64,000 bases of DNA, taken from the NCBI GenBank assembly GCA_951406725.2, contig OX597814.1, positions 16,058,001 through 16,122,000 of the forward strand. The letters are read 5' to 3'. The translations under genes and the position numbers were made by a program. Numbering within the stretch: position 1 is the stretch's first letter; each line of letters starts with the position of its first letter. Below the pieces are notes generated by a model that saw only the letters and a program-made list of their open reading frames with translations, was not told the origin of the DNA and did not search any database. Positions 20,510 to 56,301 of the stretch are shown here, in pieces. This DNA comes from Octopus vulgaris (Eukaryota).

Positions 20510-20666
20510 GGCGCAGGAGTGGCTGTGTGGTAAGTAGTGGTTCAGTCCCACTGCGTGGCATCTTGGGCAAGTGTCTTCTGCGATAGCCCCGGGCCGACCA
20601 ATGCCTTGTGAGTGGATTTGGTTGACGGAAACTGAAAGAAGCCTGTCGTATATATGTATATATATA
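20510..20666 (+). mobile_element. 5' half of SINE family B, split by the PLE insertion
   Basis: Matches 2048-2225 up to the internal TA tract; has a deletion between the A- and B-box. Confidence 0.9.
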
Positions 20667-23293
20667 ACGCATTCATAAACCGGATAAGATGGCTCGTTTT
20701 CTTCCACGAGAACGAAGATCTAAAATCGAACCGGACAACAGCATCGTCCGAATATGGCCGGCTTTTTAAAACATTGGATACGCCGCCACCCAACCCAAGA
20801 CTGAAGAAGTTTGAGGACGACTTGTGGGACATAGTTAGAAAGATTAAGTTCAGGAAGTCACCCATGAGAAATGCCCACCTCAGATACCTAGATAAAATTA
20901 CCAAGGACATTAATAGAACGGACGGAGTCCTGGTCCAGTCCGACAAGACCAGGAACACATACAAGCTACCCATTAAGCAGTACCTAGATTTACTCGGTAA
21001 AGAGATCAAGAAAAATTATAGAACAACCAATTGGAGTACCCTGAGAAAGGTAAACTTGGAAATTAAGGAAATAATGTTGACACACGGAATTCAAATGAGA
21101 ACGCAGCCGCTTAGCCCTAAGCAACCTAGATTCATAGTGAAGGACCATAAACCGAACTTCCACACCAACCCAGCGCTAAGACTCATATGCCCTGCTAGCT
21201 CTGATATCGGGATAATCAGTAAGTACATTTTAGATAAATATATCCCTAGTTTAGTAAACAAACTGAAGCTCAGCCTCTGGGCCAACTCCTCGCAGGTAGT
21301 GAAGTGGTTCTCTTCCATCCCCAATAAGAACCGTACTAGGTTCATCCAGTTTGATATCGCCAGCTTCTACCCCTCGATTAACCCTAGTGTACTAAATAAG
21401 GCCCTTTGGCATGCTCACAACAAGGCTGGCCTCACCAGAGAAGAAATAGATATCATTTTAGTTGCCAGGAAATCGTTTATTAAGTTTGATAATAAGTTGT
21501 GGATCCGTAAAGATACTCCCAATGATTTTGATGTGCCTATGGGGAGTTCGGATAGTGCGCAGATAGCCGATTTGGTCGGAATATATATTCTCTACGAATT
21601 GTCCGACCAATTCCCGGAGATCGCGGGCGGCCTGCATCGTGACGATTGTCTGTTTTACCTGCAAAACACCACGAACAGAATAGTGCAGAAAACTAAGAGC
21701 AGGTTAGCTAGGTTTTTTAATAGAGTGGGCATGAATATAGTTTTTGATAATGAACTCACCAAGGCAAATTTTCTAGACGTTACACTTAACCTTAATAGCG
21801 ACTCATACTGCCCTTACCATAAGCCTTCCACTAATTTGAAGTATGTCAGTGTCTTCTCCAATCATGCCAAAACCGTAACAGACAATTTGGTTAAAAACAT
21901 CTCTCTAAGATTGTCTGGCTTGTCCGCTAGTGCCGATATTTTTATGCAGAAAGCGGAATTTTATAACGCCGCACTATCCAAGGCCGGTTATAGGCAGAAG
22001 GTAATTTATATTGATCCGGCCCTTCCGATGCCATCATTCGGTCATCAGGATAGGGCCGTCTATAATAACATTAATAATTTAAGTAGTGACGGGAGCGCGG
22101 CGGGTGCTGGGGCAGTCGCTCCCGCATTTAATTTAGCGAACAAGGATAATTATCGGTCCGGGGGATCTCACACTAACCCAAAACCCGTTATTCATCCGAG
22201 AATCACCCACCCGAATGCGAGAGCTGGCGTCCCGACCCATCACATAAATAGGAACAAGCATATATGGTTTGTAATTCCCTTTGGTAAGCAGATTAGAACT
22301 AACCTCCCCCTCATGTTTCGACAAGCCATCGCCAATAACTTCCCCAGAAGTTCCAAATATTACTCCACGGTTAATTCGCATAAAGTTAGGATAGCTTTCT
22401 CCAACACTAAAAACCTCGCCCAGATAGTCGCCTCCCATAATAATAGGCTGCTTACTAAGACCCTACCACCTTTTTCCGGAGGCACAGCTTCTTCCGCTCC
22501 CGGTTTAACGCTCAGTAGGAATAATAATAGTAGTAATAATGATATGAGAGCCAGTACAGTGACTCATAATCCCAGCTCCAACCAGGGATTATATACTAGG
22601 GGTATAGTTACAAATAAGGGTGATGTCATTGACGGTAGCGATGGCAGTAGTGAGGTGAACGCAGCTCGGCTCGCTAGGGTAGAGAGTCCCAATAGCAACT
22701 CCAGCATCGTTTCCGGCCATAGCAGCACCACTGGCACTAGCAATGACAGCACTCTGAGTGATAGTGTAGAATCAGGGGTTATTCCGTTAGTTAATAGTGA
22801 CGTAGTGGAAAATAAAGTAGTAAGCGGCTGCAGTTCTCGCAACAAATATAGTAACAGTAACGCAGTTCTAATTTCAGAAACTAATCCTAATAGAATAAGG
22901 TTCACGTCGGTGAACTCCAAGATCAGAAACGCCGTCTACCAATGTAAGGTTTACACGGACTCAGATGTCTACTCTTATGTCGGGGCCTCATCGTCAAGAT
23001 TGTCCTCACGAATCTCCAACCATTACGCAACTTTTCGAGACGTGAATAAATGCCAGACCACGGGACTTAGCAAGCTAATTTGGCGATTGAAGAATACGAA
23101 CTCAAGCTACAGCATGGAATGGTCAATTTTGTCGGTGGCCCCCCCATTTGACAGGGGCAGAAGGAAGTGCAACCTTTGTGTCTCCGAACTCTTCCATATA
23201 TTGTTCGCCAGAGACCGGATGGTAAACGGACTTTTACAGTCGGCTTCTCGATGCCCCCACTGGCGGCGTTACACTTATCTTGCTTATAAATAA
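20654..23293 (+). CDS. PLE reverse transcriptase-GIY-YIG endonuclease polyprotein, 879 aa, uninterrupted
   Basis: SDKTRNTY, KDHKPNF, RLICPASSDIG, FDIASFYPSI, FDVPMGSSDSAQIADLVGIYIL, GLHRDDCL, NFLDVTLNL; C-terminal AVY...YVG...R...H (GIY-YIG) and CNLC..E...N...CPH. Confidence 0.93.
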   Translation: MYIYNAFINRIRWLVFFHENEDLKSNRTTASSEYGRLFKTLDTPPPNPRLKKFEDDLWDIVRKIKFRKSPMRNAHLRYLDKITKDINRTDGVLVQSDKTRNTYKLPIKQYLDLLGKEIKKNYRTTNWSTLRKVNLEIKEIMLTHGIQMRTQPLSPKQPRFIVKDHKPNFHTNPALRLICPASSDIGIISKYILDKYIPSLVNKLKLSLWANSSQVVKWFSSIPNKNRTRFIQFDIASFYPSINPSVLNKALWHAHNKAGLTREEIDIILVARKSFIKFDNKLWIRKDTPNDFDVPMGSSDSAQIADLVGIYILYELSDQFPEIAGGLHRDDCLFYLQNTTNRIVQKTKSRLARFFNRVGMNIVFDNELTKANFLDVTLNLNSDSYCPYHKPSTNLKYVSVFSNHAKTVTDNLVKNISLRLSGLSASADIFMQKAEFYNAALSKAGYRQKVIYIDPALPMPSFGHQDRAVYNNINNLSSDGSAAGAGAVAPAFNLANKDNYRSGGSHTNPKPVIHPRITHPNARAGVPTHHINRNKHIWFVIPFGKQIRTNLPLMFRQAIANNFPRSSKYYSTVNSHKVRIAFSNTKNLAQIVASHNNRLLTKTLPPFSGGTASSAPGLTLSRNNNSSNNDMRASTVTHNPSSNQGLYTRGIVTNKGDVIDGSDGSSEVNAARLARVESPNSNSSIVSGHSSTTGTSNDSTLSDSVESGVIPLVNSDVVENKVVSGCSSRNKYSNSNAVLISETNPNRIRFTSVNSKIRNAVYQCKVYTDSDVYSYVGASSSRLSSRISNHYATFRDVNKCQTTGLSKLIWRLKNTNSSYSMEWSILSVAPPFDRGRRKCNLCVSELFHILFARDRMVNGLLQSASRCPHWRRYTYLAYK

Positions 23294-24178
23294 CGCTTAT
23301 AAATAATACCTGCACCCGGTTACACTACTTATATGAAAATAGCCCTTGGAAATAAATTCTGAAAAACTTTTAGAGAAATATGATTAACCATTGCAAGGGT
23401 AATTACTCCTGGGAGAAGAATGGGGTTTTGTCTTGACGACGGGGGGTTTCTTTGACAAGGCAGTTTTAGACGAACACACGCACACATAAAAAATTTCTTT
23501 CTGCCACCCGACGGATTTTACAGCAGTGACCATTGTGTAGGGCTGTTTACCAACTGACGGCCACGTGATCAAACGCACATACGAACACATAGAACAGTAC
23601 ACACACACATGTTTCTAAGTAGATTTTGACTCGCCCCATATAATACACCTAATATTCTTTAAATAGTCAGAACTTTAGTCTCGGTCACAAAGAACATCTA
23701 AGCACCCCATGCTCCCACCCACCGGAATGACCGCTGCCTGACCCGTTAAAACCTTCAACGCACCCACCACCAGTTTTCAACATACATTGATAAACAGTTT
23801 GGCCATGGGCTCTTAGGAGCCGCATTCGATTTGTTTTGCTCCGCCTCTGTTCTGTTTTTGTTTTTTCCAACGGATTTCCTATTTCTTCCTGAAGAGAAAG
23901 ACACAATATGGTCTCCTTATTCAATCGGAATTTGGTAAATTGTGCCTTTCGAAACACGTGTAGAATGCAATAAAACGATTTCTGTTCAATCTTCGTTCAA
24001 CTCCATTTCTTCAATTCACTAATAATATTAAAATTCAATTATCCGCACCAACGCACGGTTGCAACACCATATGGTTGTACCTCCAACCGTGCTGTCTTCT
24101 GCTGTGATTTTTACTACCAAGGTATCGGTTAAACTTTTGATCAATCTGCAACAAGATTATTCATCTTTCTATTTCACA
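20667..24178 (+). mobile_element. Penelope-like retroelement (5'-truncated ORF plus ~0.9-kb 3' pseudo-LTR region)
   Basis: Higher-GC unique block bounded by (TA)n on both sides inside a SINE; RT + GIY-YIG ORF; hammerhead motif followed by AATAAA downstream. Confidence 0.9.
23886..23965 (+). ncRNA. Type I hammerhead ribozyme of the PLE
   Basis: UUC-CUGAAGA-stem II (23896-23907/23939-23950, 11 of 12 bp)-GAAA-C-ACGU-G-UA^GAA; predicted cleavage after A23962. Confidence 0.8.
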
Positions 24179-55521: not shown

Positions 55522-56301
55522 AATTAGTAAATAAATGGCACAACTAAGTACCGATATTTACTGGAAATAGCGAACGTAAAATTACAACGCTAATGTGTAG
55601 CTTCACCGCGTATGTATTAGCAAAAATGCGTGTGTGCAACAAAATAGAGAAAAAAAACCGTCTTACCTCCTGGGAGAACATCTGAAAGATGAAACACCCG
55701 GAAAATGGATAATGTGGTACCTGCAGGTTTCAGGTTTTGCAAGATATGTCTCTCACCCATATTTTGCTTTACCTTCTTCAGCCAAACATATACCAAGACG
55801 AAATCTACGATGTTACCACATTAATACTAACACACTCGACTGAGATACGGAACGCTAACAGTACGAGAAACGGTGAAGAAGTTTCAAAATATCAGTAATG
55901 CAATACAAAGTATTGCCTTCCAGTAAAAAGTAGCCCGTGAGGGAAAAATATATATATATATATATCTGTGTGTGTGCGCGTGTATGTGTGTTTGTAGCGC
56001 GTGTGTTTGTATATATGTATACAGTGAGAATGAGAGAGGGAGGGAAATGCAGAAAAATAATTATAATCCAGGCTGTGTCCTCATAAAGCTCACCAGCGTA
56101 TTCCGGTTATCAACAGTGTATATGTAGATGTTTAATTTCAATGAGAAAACCATAGAGAGAAGTTGAAATTGTTGGTCAAGTGTATATTTCACTGGGTAAA
56201 TATGCATTAATACAAATATAGGCATGTTTGGTATTACTCTTAGTCCTGTAGTTTCTTTGCAATATGGGAAATACATTTTATGAACACAGATATTAATAAC
56301 A

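Follow-up and report, generated by a model that had tools for sequence, protein, structure and literature searches.

What hammerhead ribozymes do in Penelope-like elements (PLEs) is an open question (PMC8557442). A motif of this kind lies in the 3′ region of a PLE within the 64,000-nt stretch of Octopus vulgaris DNA analysed here (the window), and its predicted cut is followed by an AATAAA hexamer. The locus raises the question of whether the motif can cut RNA, and of what the hexamer is there for. We find that the motif is a type I hammerhead, an RNA of a well-known kind that is predicted to cut itself. Our main reading, to which we give a probability of about 0.75, places it in the pLTR of a Hydra-clade PLE and holds that it is likely to self-cleave slowly upon transcription of tandem copies, as a dimer joined at the palindromic stem III.

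Hammerheads in Hydra-clade PLEs are already known and are canonical throughout (Craig et al. 2021, PMC8557442). The window element shares with them the type I fold, the canonical core and the short stem III, the location of the hammerhead 3′ of an RT-GIY-YIG open reading frame (ORF) with a DKT motif and without CCHH, and the (TA)n targets: 88/90 arm ends of loci L001-L060 run into TATATA. Its nuclease is C-terminal and displays CxxC and CxH around E and N, the DKT motif takes the form QSDKTRN, and the position of the RWK motif is occupied by RIRWL in the window ORF and by RMRWK/R/E in homologues. The CxCX5C linker of the clade is degenerate, with one Cys left inside a long low-complexity expansion, and the element is therefore filed as Hydra-like and divergent. 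The reverse transcriptase (RT) is 39% identical to a Hydra-type protein and the ORF resembles the published Hydra alignment as compared by eye; Pfam returned no family above cut-off for the window ORF or for three homologues. In contrast to published Hydra PLEs, the element combines the long low-complexity linker and degenerate CxCX5C with a unit of 3.6 kb (generally <3 kb in the published ones), and its hammerhead also differs from that of Hydra-1_Obim (PMC8557442). The expansion, which is Ser/Asn-rich and lies at window ~22500-22900 between the RT thumb and the nuclease, is also present in the sister family L083 and is reminiscent of the N-rich inserts known from Adineta Penelope elements (PMC3846280). 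A further family of this genome is represented by a more conventional Hydra-type ORF fragment (L075:1-1200), with a nuclease end similar to the one in the distant homologues.

The family is young and high-copy, with 2146 candidates in the genome and 97-100% identity among 40 scored copies. Judged from its sequence, the window copy itself is probably not autonomous, because the ATG-bearing 130 nt are missing and His replaces Tyr in the RT YxDD motif (codon at 21635). Many copies are arranged head-to-head in inverted orientation, and tandem arrays contain one hammerhead per 3,624-bp unit, the predicted cut being located 267 nt upstream of the ATG of the next unit. An intron between hammerhead and ATG was considered and dismissed: no joint was seen, and contigs of two runs guessed to be RNA cross the tandem junction unspliced. 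The features of the element and of its 3′ region are listed in Table 1.

Table 1. Features of the Penelope-like element and of its 3′ region (window positions)
Feature	Position	Strand	Basis and remarks
5′-truncated Hydra-clade-like Penelope element	20667..24178	+	between (TA)n runs (20649-20666; from 24179); without the ~130 nt bearing the start codon in tandem copies L061 and L063
ORF with RT and C-terminal GIY-YIG	20667..23293	+	885 codons (open frame 20636-23293); lacks the initial ~30 codons of the family ORF
Stem I, 5′ arm (proximal 3 bp and predicted distal extension)	23880..23888	+	sequence, homologue alignment, folding
Catalytic core CUGANGA	23889..23895	+	invariant except N7 in 29 homologues, themselves chosen on the motif
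Stem II domain of 55 nt, made up of a 12-bp stem IIa, an asymmetric internal loop and an apical hairpin (23915-23922 with 23928-23935)	23896..23950	+	folding, homologue alignment
GAAA of the core, stem/loop III with the palindrome ACACGTGT (23954-23961) and the GUA triplet; cleavage predicted at 23962/23963	23951..23962	+	sequence, folding
Stem I, 3′ arm with AATAAA (23969-23974)	23963..23974	+	sequence, alignment, folding, hexamer counts in distant families
Shorter 3′ end seen in family copies (first of the inferred RT start zones)	24019..24032	+	40/90 arm ends at +50 to +79 from the cut
Optional ~150-nt tail up to the long 3′ end	24033..24178	+	49/90 arm ends at the long end; 9-bp hairpin 24053-24061 / 24084-24092

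A preliminary description of this DNA had named a catalytic core, a GAAA, a 12-bp stem II with one mismatch, a palindrome, a GTA triplet and an AATAAA, and the sequence has every one of them where it had been placed. The core reads CTGAAGA and is joined through stem II to GAAA at 23951-23954. Stem II pairs 23896-23907 with 23939-23950 with a single A-C mismatch at position 6 and encloses 31 nt (23908-23938), ACACGTGT is a perfect 8-nt palindrome, and GTA at 23960-23962 sets the predicted cut. Proximal stem I consists of 3 bp between TTC (23886-88) and GAA (23963-65), and AATAAA begins 7 nt 3′ of the cut. The type I signature CUGANGA ... GAAA ... UH is present, with three helices of which stem I is open, and G10.1-C11.1 and A15.1-U16.1 occur in 29/29 homologues, although the search patterns partly fix these pairs. 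A strict descriptor matches once in the 64,000-nt window and in none of 100 shuffles. Core, helices and element context agree with the type I hammerhead in a PLE pLTR that had been proposed.

The check by hammerhead covariance models suggested in the same description came out negative: an Rfam scan gave no hammerhead match at the gathering cut-off or at E<=10, presumably because stem II is long. An Rfam match is a library score and not a defining feature of a type I hammerhead. Folding of the whole motif is no better than that of shuffles (z -0.45), that of the stem II domain alone is somewhat better (z -1.9), and the monomer hammerhead fold is computed to lie 4.5 kcal/mol above the MFE.

The length of stem II sets the motif apart, as had been noted at the outset. 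Across the window lineage (29 homologues) the stem II domain spans 53-59 nt. The distant set, 77 metagenome loci encoding Hydra-like proteins drawn from the best 80 of 441 matches, has the hammerhead motif in 49/77 loci, and all 50 unique motifs possess stem II domains of 10-25 nt in a search allowing up to ~90 nt (two of the 50 are probably chance). Published Hydra hammerheads have a stem II of 3-7 bp with a 3-10-nt loop (26 rows, File S2, PMC8557442), and in one study that speaks of a longer helix II, this means 6-8 bp (PMC13725137). Two spike-moss PLE-X motifs, marked as deviating, have loops of 34 and 29 nt (File S2, PMC8557442). In the minimal PLE hammerheads of Cervera and de la Pena 2014 (PMC4209133), helix II comprises 6-8 bp, often with an unpaired 5′ base, whereas the window motif has a 12-bp helix continued by an internal loop and an apical hairpin, lacks the unpaired base and extends stem I. 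Twelve other Octopus vulgaris hammerhead families, selected for length, have stem II domains of 44-63 nt, and two genome-wide patterns demanding long spacers gave 1543 and 2978 matches compared with 5 and 1 for the reversed controls. In this genome, thousands of such motifs escape Rfam models and descriptors that expect a short loop.

Several hammerhead-like loci outside the element were recorded along the way. A second motif in the window (55706-55781, minus strand) has a 43-nt stem II domain, a 10-nt stem III palindrome and a 3-bp stem I, and is embedded in a ~320-bp piece between (TA)n runs with no PLE ORF nearby. Retrozyme-like tandem repeats of ~534 bp (L098, L103-L121; G000:C1:16.52 Mb, 29.39 Mb and others) each carry a long-stem-II hammerhead and often have inverted junctions; a 403-bp tandem family is found at G000:C1:117.27 Mb, and a Hydra-like locus at L337:2400 has a hammerhead core with U3-A8 covariation.

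Conservation of the long stem was assessed in an alignment of 29 rows sharing downstream sequence, hand-picked among the loci listed, 4 from the window family and 25 from sister families, from which near-identical copies and unrelated families were excluded; where present, the sister-family nucleases are ~50-59% identical. RNAalifold predicts stem IIa unaided, with 5/11 pairs altered on both sides. Under the full structure model, 87% of cells are paired versus 34-49% in slid controls, and 11/31 pairs show double changes versus 1-4. They include 6/12 pairs of stem IIa, covariation among siblings whose absence had been named as a refuting sign, and 4/10 of stem I, and are absent from the apical hairpin (0/5), which is 91.5% paired; stem III is 99% paired. 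The covariation score and the number of paired cells were reached by 0/500 shuffles, while the count of double-change pairs was matched by 61/500 and the diversity of pair types by 451/500, all figures coming from related, hand-picked rows from which the structure itself was drawn. On the basis of the alignment and folding, the 31-nt stretch is best read as an internal loop plus the apical hairpin: its length had been correctly described, but a bare loop is not supported. The stem II extension is real, lineage-specific and retained as a helix, and leaves the ribozyme class unchanged.

Stem III bears on how such an RNA would cut. The palindrome ACACGTGT forms a computed 8-bp self-duplex of -10.3 kcal/mol, which bears out the proposal that it is suited to dimers. 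Among 60 pattern matches, the four bases of loop III left unspecified by the pattern are Watson-Crick palindromic in 43 and palindromic with wobble in 13 more; they comprise 7 different tetramers, and 21 matches are a single tetramer, mostly from one tandem family. A short stem III with a palindromic loop, and a position in the pLTR that is repeated per unit in tandem or inverted copies, are traits of dimer-type PLE hammerheads; pLTR location, palindromic stem/loop III and predicted dimer cleavage are shared with the minimal motifs (PMC4209133). The latter have low, dimer-dependent activity (PMC4209133), and motifs of this sort cleave poorly as monomers and weakly as dimers (PMC4209133; review PMC6765202, which cites Lunse et al. 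for dimer cleavage). We propose that in read-through transcripts of tandem units two hammerheads would pair through the palindrome and cut the RNA, at low efficiency, to the length of one unit. The products would be RNAs one unit long, and the downstream ORF would acquire a new 5′ end.

If cut RNAs are copied, copies should start at 23963. Counts of single arms reveal no excess of copy 5′ ends there (31 versus 32, 31 and 14 at three control positions). In a set of 42 independent fold-back junctions around the cut (44 matches minus two duplicates), an arm begins no more than 1 nt from the cut, with <=1 nt microhomology, in 12, compared with 2/28 in a matched upstream control (p=0.035) and 7/28 in the best control window (p=0.79); a sister family yields 3/16. 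Such traces of cutting in the genome are weak and do not withstand the strictest control; they are a hint, not proof. Two other signals were discarded, namely 15/26 inverted junctions with both arms near the cut, where three loci had been counted twice and one locus was triplicated, and contigs starting exactly at 23963, where a variant at 23993 makes a 31-mer bubble begin. The fold-back junctions (L236-L279) also cluster at the stem III palindrome (6/42) and at +7 from the cut (17/84 arm ends), which suggests that cDNA ends anneal at micro-palindromes.

Since most copies run through the site, most RNAs copied into the genome stayed uncut. Uncut RNA is also the main insertion substrate in the anole element, where cleavage is dispensable for insertion in vitro (PMC11167929). 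That thousands of copies run through the site without a robust pile-up of ends is likewise consistent with a motif that hardly cleaves in vivo and is retained as a fold recognised by the element's protein, or as an element acting in translation of the downstream ORF. In the anole element, catalytic mutants left insertion unaffected and the site was free of read ends (PMC11167929), and type I hammerheads located in viral 5′ UTRs favour translation that is independent of the cap, cleavage being needed there (PMC13725137). However, the core is perfect and the palindromes differ in sequence from family to family, in keeping with selection for dimer catalysis, and blunt junctions are in modest excess at the cut. 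We consider retention for such a non-catalytic purpose distinctly unlikely.

Stem I had been described as a 3-bp helix. The proximal 3 bp stand, but the stem does not end with them: 23880-23885 is predicted to pair with 23967-23972 after a 1-nt bulge, and stem I is best read as ~9-11 bp with a small internal loop and the hexamer inside. The window subfamily has a U-C mismatch in the distal part, and its flank duplex is at -0.7 kcal/mol versus -4.6 kcal/mol in L065. In the 29 homologues, 3/7 distal pairs show double changes and the distal stem is only 74% paired. The hexamer reads AGTAAA in 18, AATAAA in 9, TATAAA in 1 and AGTATA in 1 of these rows, AGTAAA being the usual form in the sister families, and its A/G position stands opposite C or U in the sister families (C-G 13, U-G 4, U-A 3 of 25 rows). 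The A(A/G/T)UAAA word makes up the 3′ arm of the extended stem I, and is also conserved as sequence. A pseudoknot of loop II UUUAUU with AAUAAA was considered; the UUUAUU bases are predicted to be paired within the apical hairpin instead.

The hexamer recurs well beyond this lineage. In 29 clusters of distant Hydra-like families (metagenome contigs, from the best 80 of 441 Hydra-like matches), AATAAA or ATTAAA is located <=22 nt 3′ of the predicted cut in 12, compared with a shuffle mean of 2.0; 0/2000 shuffles reached 12, and neighbouring windows gave 0-2 of 25-28 clusters. Clustering by protein identity with dinucleotide shuffles gave 11/30 versus 3.2 expected (0/1000 shuffles), and a second such clustering 8/27 versus 2.7 (2/1000 dinucleotide shuffles). 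AATAAA is the commonest hexamer after the cut in the distant clusters (8), ahead of its A5T permutations (2-4). TAAA is found in 16/29 clusters.

One explanation is that the A-rich word is structural only, pairing with the U-rich 5′ arm to form a stem I internal loop that docks on stem II, so that its resemblance to a poly(A) signal would be coincidental. A known tertiary contact comes from internal loops of stem I (PMC3088659; PMC6155905), and the covariation of the distal stem, the C or U facing the A/G position and the frequency of TAAA are all in line with this idea, to which we would give slightly less than even odds. It is countered by the full AWTAAA in 12 of the 16 TAAA cases, by the incomplete pairing of the distal stem and by the persistence of the word while stem II spans 10-59 nt, over which the docking partner would have to change.

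Alternatively, the hexamer is a real poly(A) signal masked by folding of stem I, which would add to the ribozyme explanation and not replace it. Unmasked, the signal would end transcription and the ORF mRNA would be polyadenylated ~10-30 nt downstream; masked, it would let transcription continue to two RT start zones and the next unit, and cleavage, 7 nt upstream, would separate the ORF from its signal. AGTAAA and TATAAA are weak poly(A) signal variants. With them, 28/29 homologues carry a candidate signal, although the weaker AGTAAA accounts for 18 of these rows. AATAAA at 23969-23974 is the sole such hexamer of the window 3′ region also present in the L061 subfamily; AATAAA at 23351 and ATTAAA at 24027, tried as alternative conserved signals, are both missing from it. 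An AAUAAA-type hexamer is conserved in position, a trait of Pol II poly(A) signals, and its recurrence, together with the preference for AATAAA over its permutations, is real but indirect support for the poly(A) idea. By contrast, only 2/26 published Hydra rows have AATAAA or ATTAAA after the cut (by eye), and among unrelated long-stem families of this genome AATAAA lies <=30 nt after the cut in 1/12.

The 3′ ends of the copies also speak against use of the hexamer as a poly(A) signal. One of 90 arms (loci L001-L060) ends at +27 from the cut, 89/90 end at +57 or later, >=46 nt beyond the hexamer, and an A-run is seen at 0/90 ends. The templates that were copied thus reach far beyond the place where poly(A) addition would be expected. 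Loose ends with poly(A) were found neither among all 5 loose ends listed at 23920-24060 in 4 runs, nor among the 24 of 91 contig loose ends listed, although these are contigs of runs guessed to be RNA and contigs cannot show ends. Of the poly(A) signal put forward in the preliminary description, the position after the cut holds, and the recurrence in distant families lends it support, but neither copy ends nor contigs point to its use as a poly(A) site; the competition between cleavage and polyadenylation suggested there may occur. We regard a masked signal as possible but doubtful.

The green anole PAc element (Frangieh et al. 2024, PMC11167929) likewise has a pLTR hammerhead, two 3′ ends defining a tail and AT-rich targets. 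It differs in that its ORF starts at stem II, compared with an ATG 267 nt after the cut here, and in that its tail is 30-40 bp, as in described PLEs, versus ~150 nt in the window family. A long hairpin is predicted in the sister family L083 at the same place as the tail hairpin of the window element.

The nearest known case to a hexamer arranged in this way is the discontinuous hammerhead of the Clec2 3′ UTR (PMC6765202, PMC6155905), which also cuts between stop codon and poly(A) signal, so that cleavage would remove the signal. That ribozyme is of type III, domesticated in a host gene and shown to lower expression, whereas the window motif belongs to a transposon and has its putative signal inside stem I. 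We found no report of a poly(A)-like hexamer within a PLE hammerhead stem I in the passages searched of the Penelope, hammerhead, pLTR and poly(A) literature, including PMC2377424, PMC3846280, PMC11167929 and PMC6765202. Within these, we could not find two traits in print, the 55-nt structured stem II and a poly(A)-like hexamer kept at the same position within stem I.

Taken to its full extent, the masked-signal idea would have Hydra-type Penelope elements hide a poly(A) signal in hammerhead stem I. Folding would decide between polyadenylated mRNA and read-through RNA reaching the RT start sites, cleavage would uncouple the ORF from the signal, and the 55-nt stem II would be an added protein-binding or folding-delay module. 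We hold this complete scheme to be fairly unlikely. If the hexamer is only structural, the motif described here belongs to a known class and is unremarkable in it apart from its long arm. If the hidden-signal reading is true, PLE hammerheads would gain a function in the choice of 3′ ends. That stem I keeps a poly(A)-like hexamer in a constant position across otherwise diverged families is a concrete and cheaply testable lead on the role of these hammerheads.
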